Source: a virus
Taxonomy: Duplodnaviria > Heunggongvirae > Uroviricota > Caudoviricetes
Virus record (IMG/VR): IMGVR_UViG_2778261692_000003
Span: 1 to 40,582 of that record
Strand: one strand, 5' to 3'
DNA length: 40,582 nt
Shown here: piece after piece, positions 2,512 to 40,582 of the stretch
Numbering within the stretch: the first letter of the stretch is position 1
How the letters are laid out: each line of letters starts with the position of its first letter
Made by a program: the position numbers and the translations under genes
Notes under the pieces: generated by a model
Database searches by the model: none
What the model was told of the DNA's origin: nothing
The model's input: only the letters and a program-made list of their open reading frames with translations

Positions 2512-4317
2512 TTAGTTCAGAATATCTGACTGACTCATAGATATAGCAGTCCAGTATCCGTAGTTTGCATCATAAGCAAATCTTATAGACCGGTGGCGCC
2601 CTGCTGCCGGGCTTGTCCATCCAGAAACTCTGAAGTCAGAAGACCAGTTTACTATTAATTCATCAGATCCAGAAATGTTATGAATAGTCATATCAATAGT
2701 CGCACCGTCTAATTTTTTTGCTACAGACGTAACATTAATTGGTGAACCAGTAGCCGACACAACACAGTATGATGATAAAAATGGGTTAATTTGCACAGTA
2801 CCATTTGATGAAATTATATTGTTGCTACGCGATGGATAAGGGTTAGTGCTTTCTTTTTTAGCTCCAGATGAAATATTGAAAATATTCTCATATGAATTTC
2901 TTAACCCGTTATCTACGATGATAGAATCGTTGCCTAAAAGATTCATACCTATTACTTTATTATCATGCGATGATGAGTCAAAATCTATACCACTGCTTAC
3001 TCCACCAATAAAGCTATTAGCATATGAGCCTTGCACCTGAATGGCTGGAGATGAATAACCAGCTTTTAGACCAATAAAGTCATTTGCATATGTTGTTTTA
3101 TGTAATAACACATCAGTTAAAGAATTAACTTCAAGATCCATGCCAATAACTGAATTCCCAACTGATTGGTTTCTATCATCAGTAGCGTGACCAAACTCAA
3201 TGCCAATATCGTTACCTTCTGATGTGCCATTTATAAATGTACAATTAGACATAAACACCCCACAAATCCCACTACCAGAGGTATGTTCAATAGTGGTATT
3301 CATGTAAGTATTTGCAGAAGACCCACGATCATTACCAGTTCCAAACTCACAATCAGATAAGATTCCGTGAACAGGGGTTGTTTGGAATGCTTCAATATTA
3401 TTACTGCATTGAATATTTTCATAGTGGCAAAGTTGGGTCCACCATTCATGAATAGCGGTCCTTGATATATTTGTCCCACGAATATTTTTGAATATACCTC
3501 CGATAACACCACGCAATGAAAGGCCATCTTTTGCGTGACCACCACCATCAAAGATAATGTTTTCAATATGTGACCCATAACCCCAGAACGAACCACTAGG
3601 CCCGCGAAGATCAATTTCCATAACATAGTCATGACTGCCACTAATGAGCTTAATGCGAGCGCCATCATCTCCATACCAAAATGCAGGACTAGTGAATGAC
3701 AACGGCTGAGATGTAAGGCAAACCCCTGCAGGTTGAACTATACGGACACCAGTATGCGCAGCAGCTACAGCAGCCTGAATTGCCACTGTGTCATCAGTTA
3801 CACCATCGCACTTAGCACCAAAATCTTTTAAGTTGATTATTTGTGCGTTTTTATCATGCTGTGTGATAGCTACCGACCCGGCAACGGGCTGTCTTACGCC
3901 AATTAATGCATCACCTTTTGAATCATCATTAATGTATTCCCCTGATTGAGATAACTGCTCTTTGAAGTCTGGACCAAACTGATCAGGGTCATACTTCAGC
4001 ACATTAGGAAAATAAAACTGCTGTGCACCATACGCATCATAAACAGCCATAGAATGGCCTTGCACGGTTACAAACTTGGCAATCTGTCCGTTATATACTG
4101 GGTAACCAGCAGCGTTAATGATGATTGGTTGAGAAACAGGAACGTGAGAGCCGTCTTCGTTCTCTACATAAACCTGAATCTGGTTTTCAGGATTTACCGG
4201 GTCAGTGTCAATTTTACCGATATAAATTTTGCCATTGGCTACGGCTTTAAAAGAACGAGCCATAGTGAAGAGTTGCGAAGGCATGCTGACCACAACATTT
4301 GCGGTGATATCTGACAT
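2512..4317 (-). CDS. Tailspike: P22 gp9-like head-binding N-domain plus divergent beta-helix receptor-binding/depolymerase domain
   Basis: Start moved to the ATG at 4317 ([17 protein letters not shown]...[27 protein letters not shown]), with GGAG upstream. This N-terminus matches P22 gp9. The downstream [20 protein letters not shown] is a pectate-lyase-like beta-helix start. GC drops after about aa 120. Confidence 0.9.
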
Positions 4318-4438
4318 TTCATTGCTCCAGACGAATGATATGATGCAACCATGATGTGATTGCATACCGAAATGGTACTATTGAGTATTTATCCAGTAGG
4401 TTACGATGCCATTCCACCCAACTGGTGAGGCATCAAGG

Positions 4439-4699
4439 ATGTACAGCAAATACGACGAGGCGCAGTTTCACTTGAGACTTCCGCATGAACTCCACGCGAA
4501 AATTAAGCAGCGTGCGAAGATGAATAACAGGTCGCTGAACTCAGAGATAATTGCAGCGATTGAGGAATCATTGGATAAACAAAGCTCTGCATCAGTTTAC
4601 ATTGACGATGCAGAGCGTATGGCAGAACAACAATCTGATATGGTTAAGAAAATTGTCTTTGATACGCTCAAGAAGCTATATAAAAAAGACAGCAGATAA
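4439..4699 (+). CDS. mnt: Mnt-like ribbon-helix-helix repressor (immI remnant)
   Basis: 86 aa from the ATG at 4439, with GGTGAGG upstream. The N-terminal FHLRLPHELHAKIKQRAKMNNRSLNSEII is an RHH fold. The C-terminus DDAERMAEQQSDMVKKIVFDTLKKLYKK closely parallels P22 Mnt. No arc or ant gene follows. Confidence 0.8.
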   Translation: MYSKYDEAQFHLRLPHELHAKIKQRAKMNNRSLNSEIIAAIEESLDKQSSASVYIDDAERMAEQQSDMVKKIVFDTLKKLYKKDSR

Positions 4700-4719
4700 C
4701 CATCCGTTACGGAGGATTT

Positions 4720-4797
4720 ATGCACAGAGATATGCTGAATATTGCGTTCTACATATTTGGTTTTTGCACGTTCCTGGTGTTTGCGAAGTTATTCTGA
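4720..4797 (+). CDS. Possible 25-aa hydrophobic micro-protein downstream of mnt
   Basis: ATG at 4720 preceded by ACGGAGGA. Translation is MHRDMLNIAFYIFGFCTFLVFAKLF, a single TM-like helix. It overlaps the 3' end of the convergent ejection-protein gene by 9 nt. Too short for statistical support. Confidence 0.25.
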   Translation: MHRDMLNIAFYIFGFCTFLVFAKLF

Positions 4798-7182
4798 CAG
4801 CGCATCAGACTTAGCCCCCTGAGTCAGGGCGTTAATGGCCTTTTGTGCCTGCTGCATGGCTTTCTCAAAGGCTGTTGATCCGCGTGGGGTGTTTGCCATT
4901 CGGAGCATTGCATTTCTGAATGGCTCGCTCTCATATGCGCGAGTAAGAAGTCCGTAGCTTACCGCTGCGCCAGTTGTCGCAGGGTTCATTGCTGTCCCAT
5001 ATCCGATAATGAACGGGATGGTTTGCTGCCCTGTTGGTGTTGTTACTGCCGCTTTTGCAGCCTGCTGCGTGGATTGCAGGTAGTTTTTCAATCCTTTCAG
5101 ATAAGCGGCTTCCTGACCTTTAAATGTGATGCCAGTCTGGTTTTGCAGGATGTTAAGCTGTCGAAGGAACTGGTCAGGGGAACCACCTGATTTCTCCATC
5201 GCCTTTCCAATGATGCCATTGCGCATTTGCGCCCTGCCAACACGACCAACTGAGTTATACAGCGTCTTAATTTCCGATTTGTTCTTGCTGAATAGCATGT
5301 TGTTGACAACTTCCGGCGTCAGGTCGCCTTTCATGAGAACATTCTTCAGCCTGGTATTCTTTAGTTTCGCCGCTTCGTCAGCGTAGACGGCATTGGCCTG
5401 CTGATATTTACGGAGAGTATCGTTGCCAAGATTCTGACCAATGGCACCATTGATATCGTCGGTCATTGCCTTGTAAACGCGCTGAATGGCAGCATCGGAA
5501 CGGTTTGGTAACACTGGTCGCTCCCCCTTCACGTCCATTCTGAACTGGCTGCGCAGATCGCTTAATTGCTTCAAATCCAGATTTACCGGACCATCAGGAC
5601 CAGCATTGCGAACAAGCTCATCACGATAGGACTGAAGTTTTGAAATAGTCTCGTTATCAGCAACCTTACCAAGCTTCTGCAGGTTAGATATTTCTGTATC
5701 AATCTGCTGAATTGCTCTTGCAGGCTGAATGTTTATTCCCGCCATAGCATTCTGAACCTGCTCAAGACGGTTCCCTGCAGCACGACGAATTCCTGATGTT
5801 TTCGCTTTAAGGCTGTCAATAACAACAGCTGGATCATACTCACCGAATTTATCAGCAAATCTCTGCACCAACTGGCTTCTCGCTTCCTGTTGCGTTGCTC
5901 TCATTCCGCTTGTGCCAGCCAGGGGGATATTTTCCGCTGTCGTCTGCGCCATTTTTCCGACGCGGGAAATGGGTTGTAACAGGTCTGTGGTGTGCAGAGG
6001 AACTCCTTCACGTTCTGCAAATCTGATAGCCTGTTGCGCTTCTGGTGCTATCGAACCACGAACACCACGATAAGCAGCACCTAATCCACGTCCGGCAGCG
6101 TTAATAGCACCGCCAGCCAGCACACCAACGCCTAAATCGGTGGCGAGTGCTTCCGCATCATCTTTCGCACTGTTTGCAGCAAGTGATCCAACTGCGTTTT
6201 CTGCGAGAAGGCGAGTTGCCACCTGAGCAATTCGACCAGCAAGTGTTGGTGCCTGTGCTGCCGCTCTCTCAACGCCAGCAGGAGTGAGGTAAGGCAATGC
6301 TTCAGCAAATACCCTTCCCTCTGTCGTTTGTGGAGTCAGCGCGCCTTGCTGAAGGCCAAAGTCCTGCTCTAATCCCTGCGTTGTTACTCGTGGTGCTGGT
6401 TGATATGTACCATCGCCAATGCCGAGTTTACCGCCAGCCCAAGCCGCCGCGCTTGTTACAGCATCAGTGAGTTCAGCAGGTATGTTCGCTACGTTGATTC
6501 CTGCCTGTAGTAAGCCGCGCCCGGTTTCAGCAAGTCCATTACCAAGGTCAGACATTATTCCGCCTTGCTGCTGAACAGGTTTCGGTGCGACAGAACTTAC
6601 GGGTTGAGGTGGCTGCTGACTGGCTGCCTGCTGCTCAATCTGAGCAAATGGATTATTTGGGTCTGACTGCACGCCTGATGCCGATACTTGTTCGGATGAC
6701 TGTGCTTCCAGTTGTGCAAACGGGTTGTTAGGGTCTTGCTGAGGATGTACCTTTGCAGAGGTGGCGCGCTGTTCGACTGTTGAGTCTGTCACCGGGTCAC
6801 CCGCCCATTGAGCAAAGCGATCATCAACGTAACCGCGGCCTTCAGGTCCTGGCGTATATTCACCACGCTTTGCCTTCATAACGTTGCCGGGACCGTCGTG
6901 ATAAGCCTGAAGAGCGTCACGCCAGTTACCAAACTGCTGGTACATCTTTGCCAGATAGCGCGCGCCAGCGTCAGCCTGATATTCGGGGTTTTGCATTTGC
7001 TCATCGGTATAACCCATATCACGCCATGTCCCAGGCATGACCTGAGTCAATCCTACAGCCCCGGCGGAGCTTACTGCGGCAGGGTTGTAAGAAGACTCCT
7101 TGGCACCCAGTGCAGTCATCAACCCTTCTGGCACACCGTAACGTGCGCCAGCCTGCTCTAACAAATCACGGTAATTAGCCAT
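4789..7182 (-). CDS. Ejection (DNA-transfer) protein, gp16 position, with N-terminal lytic transglycosylase (SLT) domain
   Basis: 797 aa. SLT motifs AKESSYNP (catalytic E-S), GLTQVMP and AYHDGPG lie in aa 25-100. The remainder is Gln/Ala-rich. It is the last gene of the three-gene ejection block. Confidence 0.85.
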   Translation of the reverse strand: MANYRDLLEQAGARYGVPEGLMTALGAKESSYNPAAVSSAGAVGLTQVMPGTWRDMGYTDEQMQNPEYQADAGARYLAKMYQQFGNWRDALQAYHDGPGNVMKAKRGEYTPGPEGRGYVDDRFAQWAGDPVTDSTVEQRATSAKVHPQQDPNNPFAQLEAQSSEQVSASGVQSDPNNPFAQIEQQAASQQPPQPVSSVAPKPVQQQGGIMSDLGNGLAETGRGLLQAGINVANIPAELTDAVTSAAAWAGGKLGIGDGTYQPAPRVTTQGLEQDFGLQQGALTPQTTEGRVFAEALPYLTPAGVERAAAQAPTLAGRIAQVATRLLAENAVGSLAANSAKDDAEALATDLGVGVLAGGAINAAGRGLGAAYRGVRGSIAPEAQQAIRFAEREGVPLHTTDLLQPISRVGKMAQTTAENIPLAGTSGMRATQQEARSQLVQRFADKFGEYDPAVVIDSLKAKTSGIRRAAGNRLEQVQNAMAGINIQPARAIQQIDTEISNLQKLGKVADNETISKLQSYRDELVRNAGPDGPVNLDLKQLSDLRSQFRMDVKGERPVLPNRSDAAIQRVYKAMTDDINGAIGQNLGNDTLRKYQQANAVYADEAAKLKNTRLKNVLMKGDLTPEVVNNMLFSKNKSEIKTLYNSVGRVGRAQMRNGIIGKAMEKSGGSPDQFLRQLNILQNQTGITFKGQEAAYLKGLKNYLQSTQQAAKAAVTTPTGQQTIPFIIGYGTAMNPATTGAAVSYGLLTRAYESEPFRNAMLRMANTPRGSTAFEKAMQQAQKAINALTQGAKSDALSE

Positions 7183-29786: not shown

Positions 29787-30023
29787 GGTGAGAATCGAAG
29801 CAACTTGTCGTGCCAATCGAGCCATATCGTCGTCAACGACGCCCCATTCAAGAACAGCAAGCAGCATTGAGAACTTTGGAATCCAATCCCTCTTCCACCT
29901 GCTGATCTGCGACTTATCAACTCCCACAGCTTCCGCTGTCTTCTCAGTTCCAAGCATTGCGATTTTGTTAAGCAACGCACTCTCGATTCTTAGAGCCTCG
30001 TTGCGTTTGTTTGCACGAACCAT
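29730..30023 (-). CDS. cII: Transcriptional activator cII (lambda)
   Basis: 97 aa from the ATG at 30023: MVRANKRNEALRIESALLNKIAMLGTEKTAEAVGVDKSQISRWKRDWIPKF... This is essentially identical to lambda CII. Confidence 0.97.
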   Translation of the reverse strand: MVRANKRNEALRIESALLNKIAMLGTEKTAEAVGVDKSQISRWKRDWIPKFSMLLAVLEWGVVDDDMARLARQVASILTNKKRPAATERSEQIQMEF

Positions 30024-30383: not shown

Positions 30384-30456
30384 ATAACCAAAGATAACTC
30401 AAGTTATAAAAAATAGCAATAACCTTTGTTATTTTACTTTGGATAACCGTAGTTAT
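30384..30456. promoter_or_regulatory. OR operator region with PR and PRM
   Basis: Three ATAAC-N4-GTTAT inverted repeats lie at 30394-30407, 30419-30432 and 30443-30456, with centres 24-25 bp apart. There is also a half-site at 30384-30388. The PR -10 TATAAT is on the minus strand at 30382-30387. A possible PRM -10 TATAGA lies at 30454-30459, which would give a leaderless cI mRNA. Confidence 0.75.
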
Positions 30457-30468
30457 AGATTTGTGGGT

Positions 30469-31176
30469 ATGAAAACATTCGCAGAAAGACTAAATGCAGC
30501 CATGAGCTCAGCTGGGGTATCACAATCACAGCTTGCTGACATGGTTGGAATATCTCAGCCAGCCATACAGAAGATGTCGTCCGGTAAAACAAACGGATCT
30601 CGCAAGATGGTTGAATTAGCCAATGCTTTAAAAGTGCGCCCTGAATGGCTTAGTTCTGGTATTGGTGAAATGAGGGATGGTGCACATGAAGAACCATCCA
30701 ATGTCCGTGAGTCATCTTTAAAAGCTGTGGTATGGGAAGACATTAAAAGAAACGATGACGAGTTTGTTGCGTTGCCTCTTCTTAACGTTTCGCTTTCAGC
30801 TGGAAGCGGTAGCTGCGAGCTAGAGGAATCATCGGAGTTCTCTTTGGTTTTCAGAAAGCACTATCTGAAAAAGATGGGAGTATCTGAAAGATCAGCCAAG
30901 CTAGTTAGGGTTGTAGGGCAAAGCATGGAACCAACGCTTCACGATGGCGATGTTGTTGGTGTTAACACGCAAGATACCACAATCAGAGATGGTAAAACCT
31001 ACGCTATTTGCCAGTCTGATTTGTTACGAGTAAAAACATTAATCGCCACCCCTACATCGGTGATAATCAGATCAATAAATCGCGAAGAGTACCCGGATGA
31101 AGTAATGGATAGAGATGAATTTCATGAAACCGTAAGGATTATTGGCAGAGTATTCTGGTCGTCTCATAGTTGGTAA
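30469..31176 (+). CDS. cI: CI-type prophage repressor (HTH_XRE + S24 LexA-like autopeptidase)
   Basis: 235 aa from the ATG at 30469. The HTH reads SQSQLADMVGISQPAIQKM. An Ala-Gly cleavage site lies in SLSAGSG. The catalytic Ser is in GQSMEPT and the catalytic Lys in LRVKTL. Confidence 0.9.
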   Translation: MKTFAERLNAAMSSAGVSQSQLADMVGISQPAIQKMSSGKTNGSRKMVELANALKVRPEWLSSGIGEMRDGAHEEPSNVRESSLKAVVWEDIKRNDDEFVALPLLNVSLSAGSGSCELEESSEFSLVFRKHYLKKMGVSERSAKLVRVVGQSMEPTLHDGDVVGVNTQDTTIRDGKTYAICQSDLLRVKTLIATPTSVIIRSINREEYPDEVMDRDEFHETVRIIGRVFWSSHSW

Positions 31177-31216
31177 CCGATAATCAGAAGAAGACTTACG
31201 GAAGTGCGGAGGGATA

Positions 31217-31513
31217 ATGGAATTTCTGACAGTTTTTGTTGTTGTTTTGGTCATCATTCTTTTTGTTTTGCTAAGCATTAGCAAAAAGCTATCTCAAATG
31301 ATTGAACATAGCTCTAATCGAGCAAAAGAAGAAGAGCATCTAATTGATATAAAAGAGATTCTCTCTGATATAAAAATCACATTAGATGAAATAAAATACA
31401 CAACAGATCTAATTGAACAGTATAAAATACCAACCCCAAACGAGAGAAAAGCAATAGATCAATATCGTATTGACTTAGAAATCGACGAAATGCTAAGCAA
31501 TAGAAAGGACTAA
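31217..31513 (+). CDS. Single-pass membrane protein of unknown function in the rex/BstA position (lysogen-expressed moron candidate)
   Basis: 98 aa with GGAGGG just upstream, starting 41 nt after the cI stop with no intervening terminator. The N-terminal TM is FLTVFVVVLVIILFVLLSI followed by KK. The C-terminal part is acidic and helical. Very low GC. A strong terminator follows. Confidence 0.7.
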   Translation: MEFLTVFVVVLVIILFVLLSISKKLSQMIEHSSNRAKEEEHLIDIKEILSDIKITLDEIKYTTDLIEQYKIPTPNERKAIDQYRIDLEIDEMLSNRKD

Positions 31514-31543
31514 AAACACCCGGCCTCAGTGCCGGGTTTTTCT
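31512..31543 (+). terminator. Intrinsic terminator ending the cI-moron unit
   Basis: ACCCGGC-CTCAGT-GCCGGGT followed by TTTTTCTT. The preceding A-run makes it potentially bidirectional. Confidence 0.85.
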
Positions 31544-31667
31544 TACCCTGCCGTTCACCACCCAATCAACCATCCTCAGCATAGACAAGCATCAAGCCAA
31601 AGGTAACACCTTCACCCCGCACGCAAGCCCTCAAACACCAATCAATCAGCAACATTTACAAAAATAA

Positions 31668-31753
31668 AATACCTTTGTTATCCATCACTTATAACTTATT
31701 TACCACAAAATATAAATTAGGTTATTGACCACACCTATAACCTAAGTTATCTT
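31668..31753 (+). promoter_or_regulatory. OL operators and PL promoter
   Basis: PL has -35 TTGACC (31725-31730), a 17-nt spacer and -10 TATCTT (31748-31753). The operators are ATAAC-CTAA-GTTAT (31737-31750), ATAAA-TTAG-GTTAT (31712-31725) and the weaker AATAC-CTTT-GTTAT (31668-31681). Confidence 0.75.
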
Positions 31754-31947: not shown

Positions 31948-32220
31948 ATGACAGTAGTCATTACATATCTGGCTGACGATAACGCCAGAAATCGCCGCAG
32001 AGCACGCAGACAGGCTCAACGTGAACAGGCAATGCAAGAACAGCGATTGGCGCGAAAAATTGCGCTAAAGCTCTCTGGTTGCGTCAGAGCAGACAAAGCA
32101 GCATCACTAGGAAGCCTTTGCTGCAAGAAGGCAGATGAATGCAGTGGAAGTATTTGCCTGCCAAACGTAGCCGTTTACGCGGCAGGCTACCGGAAATCAA
32201 AACAATTGACGGCGAGGTAA
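31948..32220 (+). CDS. N-type antiterminator (P22 gp24 family)
   Basis: 90 aa. An arginine-rich motif NARNRRRARRQAQREQ lies near the N-terminus. The C-terminus LPNVAVYAAGYRKSKQLTAR parallels the P22 gp24 C-terminus. GGAGG lies upstream. Confidence 0.85.
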   Translation: MTVVITYLADDNARNRRRARRQAQREQAMQEQRLARKIALKLSGCVRADKAASLGSLCCKKADECSGSICLPNVAVYAAGYRKSKQLTAR

Positions 32221-32222
32221 TT

Positions 32223-32585
32223 ATGGGTCAGGAAGAAAAATATGAGCTTAAAAAGCTCATTGAAGAAGACGCCATAGAAGAAATTGCAGCATTAACAACA
32301 GCTATAAAGAATATTAGGTATGCGCTAAATACGCTTATCTCCTCATGCGACAAAAATAGCAGGGAATTTTTGATACTTGGCGCAGCTCTAGGAATAGTTG
32401 ATGCGGCAACGCTTCACCTAATTACTCATGACAATATTCTTATTGAGCCGTATGAAACATTACTGCTTGTCAGGCAAAAAATGGCTGATGCCGCAGCAAA
32501 TGGAGACCTTCAACTTTACATCGACTTAAGGAAAGTATTAAGGCGAATGGTCAGAACTGAAGGAGATATCCCCCTGACAAAATAA
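32223..32585 (+). CDS. Hypothetical helical protein (120 aa), first gene of the N-cIII accessory island
   Basis: ATG at 32223 after GAGGTAATT, starting 3 nt after the N stop. Low GC. No recognisable motif. Confidence 0.6.
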   Translation: MGQEEKYELKKLIEEDAIEEIAALTTAIKNIRYALNTLISSCDKNSREFLILGAALGIVDAATLHLITHDNILIEPYETLLLVRQKMADAAANGDLQLYIDLRKVLRRMVRTEGDIPLTK

Positions 32586-32765
32586 GGGGGTGAGAGGATT
32601 TTACTATTTTCCTCGCTGTAGGGGTACACGAGAACCACCGAGCCTGATGTGGTTAAAAGACAGGCACAATCTTTACTACCGCAAGCCACGCAGTGAAATG
32701 GGTGTGACTTGTGTTGGTCGCCAGAAAATGAAATTAGGCAGCAAACCACTTATTTGAGGTGATAT

Positions 32766-33188
32766 ATGGAAGAACAAGCAAACAAGATTCTCGTAGAACT
32801 ACTGCAAAAAGCCAGCAATGGAATAGACGCGGCTGTTTCATTTAGCCAGGCACAGATTCCTGATGTTGTTCATCAGTTGCTAATATGGAGTTTTGTCCAT
32901 AGCGCACTTTCCCAAGTGACTGGGTTGTTGCTTTTAATTGCAGCAATAAAACTTCCTAGTTTTGCAAGAACGGCAAGAAATAATGGCGAGAGATGGACGT
33001 CTTTCGATGGATGTCCAAATGATGGATATTTTATATCTTCGTTTTATTACGATATATGCACCGTATTTGCTCCTGTATTTGGCTCAATTATTGGCGTTTC
33101 AATTATCGCCTTCAATTTCGAATGGTTGAAGATTTGGCTTGCACCTAAGTTATTCCTAATTGAATATGCAGCATCATTGGTTAAGTAA
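32766..33188 (+). CDS. Hypothetical inner-membrane protein (140 aa, 2-3 TM segments)
   Basis: TTATTTGAGGTGATAT precedes the ATG. Hydrophobic segments are LLIWSFVHSALSQVTGLLLLIAAI and ICTVFAPVFGSIIGVSIIAF. A terminator follows. Confidence 0.65.
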   Translation: MEEQANKILVELLQKASNGIDAAVSFSQAQIPDVVHQLLIWSFVHSALSQVTGLLLLIAAIKLPSFARTARNNGERWTSFDGCPNDGYFISSFYYDICTVFAPVFGSIIGVSIIAFNFEWLKIWLAPKLFLIEYAASLVK

Positions 33189-33192
33189 TTTC

Positions 33193-33218
33193 AGGCCGCA
33201 TAGTCGGCCTTTATTTTT
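33193..33218 (+). terminator. Intrinsic terminator
   Basis: AGGCCG-CATAGT-CGGCCT followed by TTATTTTT. Confidence 0.8.
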
Positions 33219-33266
33219 GGCATAAACAAGAGAATAAACACCGCACTGAATTATTTGAGGTGAGAT

Positions 33267-33737
33267 ATGACAAAATCATGGAGCGTACCTTTTCCTGAAT
33301 CAGAAACTGAACATGATGGAATGCCTGTTTTCTGGAGATTCCAGGCGACAGTTGAAGAAGATGGAATCAAAATATTCGCACTTCAATATATAGCTTTTCA
33401 TCAGACAGAGCATTATGCATGGTTGGTTCCTGCGCATTGGATTGTTAATTTTAAACCAACACCAAATCAGTGGTTACAGGAATGGAAACAAAGGAGAAAT
33501 AGATATGCAATTAAGAAAGTAGCAAAAAATGCAGAAAGATCTTTTGCATTCCCGACGAAGAAACTTGCCATTGAAAGTTTATTGCGCCGGAAGAAATACC
33601 ATTTAATGAGAATCAAACAAGATTTGGCTGTTGTATCAACTCTTGTTGATGGGATGAAGAATATTGATACATCAACACCAGATATTGAATATAACTTTGG
33701 ACACAACCAAGAAACAGAAAACTGGGTGTTTTATTAG
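33267..33737 (+). CDS. Hypothetical soluble Trp-rich protein (156 aa)
   Basis: TTATTTGAGGTGAGAT precedes the ATG, the same 13-nt RBS box as the preceding gene. Low GC. No recognisable motif. Confidence 0.65.
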   Translation: MTKSWSVPFPESETEHDGMPVFWRFQATVEEDGIKIFALQYIAFHQTEHYAWLVPAHWIVNFKPTPNQWLQEWKQRRNRYAIKKVAKNAERSFAFPTKKLAIESLLRRKKYHLMRIKQDLAVVSTLVDGMKNIDTSTPDIEYNFGHNQETENWVFY

Positions 33738-39334: not shown

Positions 39335-40582
39335 CTATATTGCTGAAGGTACAGGCGTTTCCATAACTATTTGCTCGCGTTTTTTACTCAAGAAGAAAAT
39401 GCCAAATAGCAACATCAGGCAGACAATACCCGAAATTGCGAAGAAAACTGTCTGGTAGCCTGCGTGGTCAAAGAGTATCCCAGTCGGCGTTGAAAGCAGC
39501 ACAATCCCAAGCGAACTGGCAATTTGAAAACCAATCAGAAAGATCGTCGACGACAGGCGCTTATCAAAGTTTGCCACGCTGTATTTGAAGACGGATATGA
39601 CACAAAGTGGAACCTCAATGGCATGTAACAACTTCACTAATGAAATAATCCAGGGGTTAACGAACAGCGCGCAGGAAAGGATACGCAACGCCATAATCAC
39701 AACTCCGATAAGTAATGCATTTTTTGGCCCTACCCGATTCACAAAGAAAGGAATAATCGCCATGCACAGCGCTTCGAGTACCACCTGGAATGAGTTGAGA
39801 TAACCATACAGGCGCGTTCCTACATCGTGTGATTCGAATAAACCTGCATAAAAGACAGGAAAAAGTTGTTGATCAAAAATGTTATAGAAAGACCACGTCC
39901 CCACAATAAATATGACGAAAACCCAGAAGTTTCGATCCTTGAAAACTGCGATAAAATCCTCTTTTTTTACCCCTCCCGCATCTGCCGCTACGCACTGGTG
40001 ATCCTTATCTTTAAAACGCATGTTGATCATCATAAATACAGCGCCAAATAGCGAGACCAACCAGAAGTTGATATGGGGACTGATACTAAAAAATATGCCG
40101 GCAAAGAACGCGCCAATAGCATAGCCAAAAGATCCCCAGGCGCGCGCTGTTCCATATTCGAAATGAAAATTTCGCGCCATTTTTTCGGTGAAGCTATCAA
40201 GCAAACCGCATCCCGCCAGATACCCCAAGCCAAAAAATAGCGCCCCCAGAATTAGACCTACAGAAAAATTGCTTTGCAGTAACGGTTCATAAACGTAAAT
40301 CATAAACGGTCCGGTCAAGACCAGGATGAAACTCATACACCAGATGAGCGGTTTCTTCAGACCGAGTTTATCCTGAACGATGCCGTAGAACATCATAAAT
40401 AGAATGCTGGTAAACTGGTTGACCGAATAAAGTGTACCTAATTCCGTCCCTGTCAACCCTAGATGTCCTTTCAGCCAAATAGCGTATAACGACCACCACA
40501 GCGACCAGGAAATAAAAAAGAGAAATGAGTAACTGGATGCAAAACGATAGTACGCATTTCTGAATGGAATATTCAGTGCCAT
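39335..40582 (-). CDS. cscB: Sucrose:H+ symporter CscB (oligosaccharide/H+ symporter, LacY family)
   Basis: 415-aa 12-TM MFS protein. MALNIPFRNAYYRFASSYSFLFFISWSLWWSLYAIWLKGHLGL matches E. coli CscB as I remember it. The start codon lies at the window edge. The csc locus is known to sit next to argW. Confidence 0.93.
   Translation of the reverse strand: MALNIPFRNAYYRFASSYSFLFFISWSLWWSLYAIWLKGHLGLTGTELGTLYSVNQFTSILFMMFYGIVQDKLGLKKPLIWCMSFILVLTGPFMIYVYEPLLQSNFSVGLILGALFFGLGYLAGCGLLDSFTEKMARNFHFEYGTARAWGSFGYAIGAFFAGIFFSISPHINFWLVSLFGAVFMMINMRFKDKDHQCVAADAGGVKKEDFIAVFKDRNFWVFVIFIVGTWSFYNIFDQQLFPVFYAGLFESHDVGTRLYGYLNSFQVVLEALCMAIIPFFVNRVGPKNALLIGVVIMALRILSCALFVNPWIISLVKLLHAIEVPLCVISVFKYSVANFDKRLSSTIFLIGFQIASSLGIVLLSTPTGILFDHAGYQTVFFAISGIVCLMLLFGIFFLSKKREQIVMETPVPSAI

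Follow-up and report, generated by a model that had tools for sequence, protein, structure and literature searches.

What does a small gene that a prophage keeps directly behind its repressor gene do for the lysogen? Genes co-expressed with the repressor belong to the small set of phage genes that every lysogen expresses, and the two studied occupants of the position downstream of cI, rexAB and bstA, are abortive-infection systems. We addressed this question for the 40,582-nucleotide stretch of virus DNA in IMG/VR record IMGVR_UViG_2778261692_000003 (hereafter the window), which belongs to a P22-like lambdoid prophage. Here, a 98-codon open reading frame (ORF98, positions 31217-31513) is located between cI and the left operator and promoter (OL/PL), on the cI strand.

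ORF98 is a protein-coding gene of a rare family

The ratio of nonsynonymous to synonymous substitution rates (dN/dS) was 0.12-0.18 when ORF98 was compared with three Citrobacter or metagenome copies (protein identity 73-77%, synonymous divergence dS 0.8-1.3), and because of this low ratio we consider the gene to be under purifying selection. An open frame of 98 codons has a probability of about 2e-4 at this base composition, and an equally long open stretch was found in only 15 of 5000 shuffles of positions 31177-31543. Moreover, a RefSeq gene call is present in the listed complete E. coli genomes that carry ORF98 (99 carriers). We conclude that ORF98 is a genuine protein-coding gene under clear purifying selection. 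The corresponding mRNA segment (31170-31560, -91.5 kcal/mol) folds far better than its dinucleotide shuffles (z = -4.4), with part of this excess coming from the terminator and from an internal 21-nt repeat. A small RNA or a riboswitch was considered as well and was rejected, as an Rfam search of the segment gave no match and the coding signature is clear.

The earlier note on this DNA, which was made from the sequence alone, could not place the protein in any family. Such a placement proved possible: ORF98 matches phrog_18389 (PHROGs v4) over its full length (residues 1-98 on profile positions 1-98, E 1.9e-61), although the function of this family is itself unannotated. The same model was matched by all 17 diverged relatives, which form the aligned set used here for comparisons of family, topology and conservation. 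The family layout consists of an N-terminal hydrophobic helix, a linker that varies both in length and in sequence and, toward the C-terminus, the conserved motif IKY[TV]TDxIEKYKLPxxER..ID..ID.EI. Four residues (Y69, P72, D81 and E88) are invariant in the family.

Only 14 cluster representatives were found in an exhaustive hidden Markov model (HMM) search of 1.84 billion representatives. The members found by HMM include one from Yersinia frederiksenii and one distant member from Pelagicoccus, the remainder being metagenome sequences, and a word-indexed search returned relatives from E. coli and Citrobacter only. Among complete E. coli genomes, 99 of 5426 (about 1.8%) carry the gene, always on the chromosome, and the carrier prophages span pathotypes: enterotoxigenic (ETEC), extraintestinal pathogenic (ExPEC), O26 and O111 (O111:H8) strains. 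When 50,697 deposited phage genomes were searched by tblastn with four family members, the sole carrier was the Shiga toxin (Stx) 1a-converting phage Stx1a_10051 (LC744178.1, locus L001), where the gene is unannotated.

Searches of other libraries with ORF98 and all 17 relatives (Pfam, NCBIfam and PADLOC) gave only sub-threshold compositional matches to transmembrane (TM) or coiled-coil segments, and no Pfam or NCBIfam family was common to more than three of the 17 relatives. The best Pfam match of ORF98 was DUF5385 (15.7 bits, cut-off 25). As such matches are compositional and sub-threshold, DUF5385, DUF948, ZorB and MscL were rejected as family assignments. The match to the ZorB/MotB stator model (PADLOC PDLC00651; E 0.0043, 14.6 bits) covers only the TM segment and linker (residues 3-56), no partner gene is present, and the MotB matches in the PDB had an E value of 0.4. 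A profile search of PDB sequences returned designed coiled coils only, with MotB and sodium-channel TM segments at E > 0.1. The note had proposed a Foldseek search with a predicted model, and this check revealed no informative fold, the results being empty or insignificant against both PDB and BFVD. A scan of genome contigs with the family alignment produced 61 pattern matches, none of which was confirmed. Literature searches found no papers on WP_000394869, phrog_18389 or DUF3024, a family that is considered below, and no mention of LC744178 or Stx1a_10051, for which the matches came via 'Stx1a phages' only. Neither of the accessions looked up in the DefensePredictor supplements was present there.

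ORF98 homologues follow many unrelated repressors at short distance

The lambdoid contexts examined comprised the window and at least 30 E. coli contigs from IMG/VR, together with three loci from Citrobacter or metagenomes and six whose members are 35-48% identical; a Yersinia-type member was among those covered. In every one of them the homologue is located on the cI strand between an S24 repressor gene and N. Homologues of 35-77% identity start 1, 12, 14, 15, 23, 24, 40, 41 or 54 nt after the repressor gene and were found behind at least eight different S24 repressors, which are mostly less than 45% identical in pairwise comparison or cannot be aligned. The similarity pattern of the small proteins does not parallel that of the repressors: the small proteins of the window and of locus L003 are 76% identical, with cI proteins that cannot be aligned. 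A GC hairpin with a T-run stands 3' of the homologue in most loci, while L038 and L043 show no clear one.

As the spacers behind these unrelated cI genes are so short (1-54 nt), there is no place in them for a conserved private promoter, and dependence of ORF98 on the repressor promoters is therefore the parsimonious reading. A separate promoter was considered and rejected: besides the shortness of the spacers behind other repressors, the sole candidate in the window, a promoter-like site in the 3' end of cI (31142-31170, 9/12), is at chance level. Judged from the arrangement of the locus, ORF98 probably shares the cI transcript, from both the maintenance promoter (PRM) and the establishment promoter (PRE), and this transcript would end before PL.

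The junction of the two genes was largely as the note had read it. It placed the ORF at 31217-31513, 41 nt past the cI stop, with a strong GGAGG-type ribosome-binding site and no terminator in between. Indeed, the ATG is the 41st base after the stop codon, leaving a 40-nt spacer (31177-31216, + strand) with the Shine-Dalgarno sequence GGAGGG at 31208-31213, and the terminator scan of the interval detected no terminator-like site. The GGAGGG sequence ends 3 nt 5' of the ATG (31217), a short but still usable spacing.

Upstream of this junction, domain search identified cI (30469-31176, + strand) as a 235-residue repressor with HTH_3 and Peptidase_S24 domains, and the same 708-nt coding sequence is present in the RefSeq annotation of locus L002. 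Between cro and cI, a pattern count located three copies of the putative operator ATAACnnnnGTTAT (OR, 30394-30456), and two further copies were located at OL (31712-31750). The window contains six copies in total compared to 0.92 expected, and none of 100 shuffles reached six. A PRM-like promoter, TTTACT-17-TAGATT (30433-30461, + strand), was read directly from the sequence. It agrees with the consensus at 8/12 positions, which is under the threshold of the promoter scanner, so the scanner did not list it. The site ends 7 nt 5' of the cI ATG, a position that would make the cI mRNA leaderless, as in lambda. A PRE-like cII box, TTGCGTTTGTTTGC (30001-30014, + strand), was detected by pattern match within the 5' end of cII, oriented toward cI and ORF98. 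The pattern alone is not rare (8 matches compared to 3.5 expected), and a role of this box in PRE is suggested by analogy with lambda.

Downstream, a bidirectional intrinsic terminator, ACCCGGC-N6-GCCGGGT with a T-run (31518-31545, scored on both strands), would mark the end of the immunity transcript. Its hairpin (31518-31537) has 7 bp, six of which are GC, is followed by TTTTTCTT and is strong by the score of the scanner. Operator count and promoter scan then placed OL (31712-31753, + strand), where two operators overlap a PL-like promoter, TTGACC-17-TATCTT (31725-31753). The gene for the N antiterminator (31948-32220, + strand; PF25694, E 1.6e-14; phrog_271) forms the right-hand limit of the slot between cI and N.

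The slot behind cI is a cargo hotspot

An OR-to-OL query matched 163 E. coli genomes. Of these matches, 98 have cI and ORF98, and in about 57 the homology ends exactly at the cI stop codon. In strain 2014C-3061 (locus L048), a 93%-identical cI is followed after 37 nt by a DUF3024 gene, and since the Cro accession is shared, the immunity of this locus is the same as that of the window. In O145- and O157-type prophages (L049), a 79%-identical cI has no same-strand gene after it. In strain 3CM (L050, 4038-5266), an IS3-family element splits ORF98 and leaves a 75-residue fragment (P0010). Because related or same-immunity cI genes have DUF3024 or nothing in the slot, we conclude that the slot is a cargo hotspot and that ORF98 is a promoter-less moron. 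The note had called the gene a moron on the basis of a GC content far below that of the flanking immunity genes. Both points are borne out: the GC content is 30.6% in ORF98 (27% at third codon positions, GC3), 43.5% in cI (GC3 38%) and 46.9% in the window, and to this low value we can add that the gene varies between presence and absence downstream of the same cI or a related one. In two of the loci we made further observations. The DUF3024 gene of L048 (3833-4174) shows no depressed GC content, and strain 19AR1321 (L002, 5472-7774) has an IS21-family element, ISEc12, between the terminator and N.

The terminator itself requires a different assignment. The note had described a near-perfect terminator after the gene and upstream of OL/PL; its quality and position were as described, but it is probably not part of the cassette. 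The hairpin CCCGGC-N6-GCCGGG is also found in L049 (3917-3934), where the gene is absent and the rest of the interval between cI and hairpin is non-homologous. Since the hairpin occurs at a cI locus without ORF98, it probably belongs to the backbone or to a module boundary, and we rejected the terminator as part of a mobile cassette. It may serve as a recombination joint at the module boundary. The same hairpin is conserved across E. coli and Citrobacter loci (3' of the homologue in L003, L005 and L006), and in Citrobacter it also terminates a convergent small gene (DUF2767 or unnamed).

The note had further pointed out that this position hosts rexAB in lambda and BstA in BTP1-like phages, and the literature does describe the interval between cI and N as a mosaic hotspot, with rexAB in lambda and bstA in BTP1 (PMC8585504). 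That paper cites Degnan et al. 2007 for the hotspot.

The module formed by cI and ORF98 is present in the P22-like prophage of the window and in the Stx1a-converting phage. This immunity module is thus common to P22-like and Stx phage backbones.

ORF98 is predicted to be anchored in the inner membrane with a cytoplasmic tail

The architecture of the protein was examined in ORF98 and in the aligned relatives. The note had recognized an N-terminal TM helix followed by KK and an acidic helical tail with IK-EIL-type repeats, and the present analysis recovers both elements in more defined form. The TM segment comprises residues 3-21 (31223-31279; mean Kyte-Doolittle hydropathy 3.4) and is followed by SKK. 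After a variable linker (residues 22-43), residues 44-71 (31346-31429) form a predicted stalk of four heptads, DIKEILS/DIKITLD/EIKYTTD/LIEQYKI, all of which have Ile in the first core position. TRF detected a 21-nt period within ORF98, present in two copies. An AF2 model (pLDDT 80-81) has one helix over residues 2-68, a turn at 69-73 (YKIPTP, which extends over residues 69-74) and a second helix over residues 74-97 (31436-31507).

All 17 members have no Lys or Arg before the TM segment and one to four in the 15 residues that follow it, and their tails are net acidic. From this Lys/Arg distribution and the positive-inside rule we infer, strongly, an N-out/C-in topology, with the conserved tail predicted to be cytoplasmic. 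This departs from the exposed, periplasmic tail that was implicit in the note. The TM segment is purely aliphatic, with no polar, charged or Gly residues, and is less conserved (0.47) than the C-terminal hairpin (0.64). In its composition it looks like an anchor rather than the lining of a channel. The protein probably oligomerizes via the Ile-rich heptad stalk, and the structural model suggests that it is likely a coiled-coil oligomer, tethered to the membrane, that exposes a small helical hairpin of conserved sequence on the inner side.

Proposed function and its rivals

In the explanation that we propose, ORF98 is an accessory gene of a P22-like lambdoid prophage, housed in the slot that runs from cI to the immunity terminator. 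It would be the downstream cistron of a message shared with cI, started at PRM in the lysogen and at PRE while lysogeny is being established, and would be translated from its own strong Shine-Dalgarno site, with the transcript ending at the hairpin at 31518-31545, before OL/PL. The product would be a bitopic inner-membrane protein (N-terminus out, C-terminus in) with the aliphatic N-terminal helix as an anchor, and would display an acidic helical hairpin with a YK[IL]P turn on the cytoplasmic membrane face. Its most likely role there would be to protect the lysogen against superinfecting phages by binding a membrane-located infection step from the cytoplasmic side. Candidate targets are the conduit for DNA delivery, an entry factor in the inner membrane of the host or an early phage protein associated with the membrane. 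Pore formation by ORF98 itself is unlikely in this scheme. The explanation starts from a real gene of a defined family that keeps its position in a cassette slot. Taken as a whole, we give it nearly, though not quite, an even chance, and its functional core, protection of the lysogen against other phages through binding on the cytoplasmic side of the membrane, is proposed by analogy of position and is held tentatively, at that level or slightly below it.

Several observations weigh against a protective role. In sequence-library and fold searches, ORF98 resembled neither Rex nor BstA nor any other known protein of exclusion or defence, and literature searches gave no expression data for family members. 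A conserved domain that is predicted to be cytoplasmic is unfit for a periplasmic block. A surface that senses phages would be expected to diversify, which the highly conserved C-terminal hairpin does not; binding to a conserved host protein would fit this conservation equally well. The same module of cI and ORF98 also spans virion types, and as it is found in both P22-like and Stx1a phages, it is not tied to one injection machinery. Finally, three distant members (L039, L040 and L046; 26-36% identity) occur in non-lambdoid contexts with no recognizable upstream repressor.

A more ambitious version of the proposal is that phrog_18389 represents a previously unrecognized single-protein, membrane-tethered partner of the immunity operon, retained directly after heteroimmune S24 repressors across Enterobacterales phages, whose mechanism would be new and would operate on the cytoplasmic side of the inner membrane. 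This partner would belong either to an exclusion or defence class, in which case it may capture the incoming DNA-delivery conduit or an early phage protein, or would modulate repressor cleavage and induction. We regard this version as rather unlikely.

Among the alternatives to lysogen protection, the one that survives best is a lysogenic-conversion factor unrelated to phages. In that case, ORF98 would be a small inner-membrane regulator of a host membrane protein (a transporter, a sensor kinase, or envelope or division machinery) that alters host physiology or gut fitness. The layout of one TM anchor and a short coiled coil is a generic one among small membrane-protein regulators, conservation of the C-terminal motif extends across Escherichia, Citrobacter and the Yersinia-type member, and the gene is carried by prophages of diverse pathotypes (ETEC, ExPEC, O26, O111). 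However, no homology to known regulators was found, the family is rare (14 representatives in 1.84 billion, about 1.8% of complete E. coli genomes), and in lambdoid contexts it is confined to the repressor operon. We consider a host regulator unlikely.

Somewhat more doubtful is a modulator of the lysis-lysogeny switch or of induction that does not exclude other phages and that could act, for example, through FtsH/HflKC and cII, through RecA-dependent cI cleavage or through the CI/Cro balance. Linkage to autocleavable S24 repressors of many specificities favours such a role, as does the 1-nt gap in one case, which suggests translational coupling. PRE expression during establishment would be expected from the cII box, and a conserved, non-diversifying cytoplasmic domain fits a conserved regulatory target in host or phage. 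There is also a precedent, since lambda RexA and RexB have been proposed to act on the switch from this very slot; a preprint entitled 'Bacteriophage lambda RexA and RexB Functions Assist the Transition from Lysogeny to Lytic Growth' (10.1101/2021.04.19.439022) reportedly makes this case. On the other hand, as the same or a closely related cI works with DUF3024 or nothing in the slot, ORF98 is dispensable for the switch. In addition, one member-carrying phage also encodes cIII, and library searches revealed no similarity to cIII, RexA/B or any regulator.

As a membrane toxin or a pore for abortive infection, ORF98 would oligomerize through its heptad stalk and, once triggered, depolarize the membrane in the manner of a one-protein effector of RexB or holin type, or would act as a post-segregational killer. 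The slot is indeed that of rexAB, and the protein combines an N-terminal TM helix with an oligomerization-prone stalk. However, it has only one TM helix, which consists of aliphatic residues alone and is conserved to a lesser degree than the tail, and at the loci examined no gene for a partner, sensor or antitoxin lies alongside. A toxin expressed constitutively with cI would kill the cell unless a control element held it back. A toxin or pore is therefore improbable.

That ORF98 is no functional protein gene at all, but an open frame that arose by chance, a remnant in decay or a structured RNA within the 3' untranslated region of cI, is barely credible: the folding of the mRNA segment and the rarity and AT-richness of the sequence would fit, but the dN/dS ratio nearly excludes it, motif and length are kept down to 26-35% identity, the Shine-Dalgarno position is conserved among homologues, Rfam gave no match and a frame of this length is improbable at this composition.

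The protein is small enough for quick testing, and the family is under purifying selection and faithful to the slot behind many unrelated repressors. Carriers make up about 2% of complete E. coli genomes, with O26, O111 and ETEC strains among them, and an Stx1a phage has the gene as well. If a defence or induction phenotype exists, it would therefore bear on phage traffic and on toxin-phage biology in pathogens, and carriage by Stx1a-converting phages of O26 and O111 strains could affect the range of superinfecting phages or the inducibility of the Stx prophage. If there is no such phenotype, ORF98 is one more ordinary moron of uncharacterized function.

Other features of the window

A low-GC block (32139-33737, 36-38%) is located 3' of N and contains three ORFs, phrog_7374, which overlaps the 3' end of N, phrog_3054 (140 residues, hydrophobic) and phrog_1636, none of which has an annotated function. 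In L002, the area that matches this block carries sieB on the opposite strand. Adjoining the tailspike gene, an ORF at 1356-2489 resembles O-acetyltransferases and O-antigen acetylases (phrog_3333) and is probably a serotype-converting lysogenic-conversion gene. The ORF at the edge of the window (39335-40582, 415 residues), where an integrase might be expected, matched only phrog_17800, whose function is unannotated.

Comparison with known systems

Rex of lambda is a two-gene system composed of polytopic RexB and the cytoplasmic sensor RexA. ORF98 shares with rexA-rexB the slot 3' of cI and 5' of the immunity terminator and OL/PL, with the same presumed expression from PRM and PRE (PMC8585504), and in both cases a membrane protein is involved. 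In contrast to rexA-rexB, it is one gene with a single TM segment and has no partner gene between cI and the terminator. No similarity to Rex was detected in Pfam, PHROG or PADLOC scans, the presence of Rex models in PADLOC v2 being unverified.

The bstA gene is a closer positional parallel. It is a single gene directly 3' of the repressor gene of the P22-like prophage BTP1 and ends at a Rho-independent terminator of its own; the prophage expresses it at a high level in lysogeny, presumably via the repressor promoter, and its synteny with the repressor is conserved across hosts (PMC8585504). ORF98 likewise is a single gene immediately after a prophage repressor, with a terminator after it and with synteny kept. 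However, BstA is described as localizing to phage DNA replication sites and as having no membrane anchor (PMC8585504), whereas the 98-residue ORF98 protein is predicted to be membrane-anchored and shows no similarity to BstA by Pfam or PADLOC.

SieA of P22 is expressed from the prophage, resides in the inner membrane and blocks DNA delivery there (PMC10883804). ORF98 resembles it in its predicted inner-membrane location and its origin from a P22-like prophage. SieA has 162-164 residues and three predicted TM segments, and is encoded in the immI region between the ejection-protein and tailspike genes (PMC10883804), whereas ORF98 has one TM segment and a predicted cytoplasmic coiled-coil tail, is located in the cI operon and has no sequence similarity to SieA. 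In the window, the interval from the tailspike gene (2512-4365) to the gp16-like ejection protein gene (4789-7182) contains only a 97-residue Arc/Mnt-like ORF (4406-4699, + strand), and the gap (4366-4788) has no room for the canonical 162-residue, three-TM sieA of P22. That ORF98 substitutes for sieA is pure speculation. ZorB/MotB proteins differ in a further way, as the ORF98 match covers the TM segment and linker and not the periplasmic peptidoglycan-binding part, and a ZorA partner is lacking. In summary, ORF98 is placed like rexAB and bstA, yet fails every feature tested for them.

A further comparison is with the morons of lambdoid phages, a concept that is said to come from Juhala and Hendrix. 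As with these, close relatives among the phages differ in whether they carry ORF98 at this site, and its base composition deviates from that of its neighbours (30.6% GC versus 43.5% in cI and 46.9% in the window). It differs in having no promoter of its own and relying, as its position suggests, on the repressor promoters. A strong terminator is located 3' of the gene, but the same hairpin follows cI where the gene is absent and so may belong to the backbone. ORF98 is thus an uncharacterized repressor-operon cargo of lambdoid prophages, a rare family that extends an already established concept.

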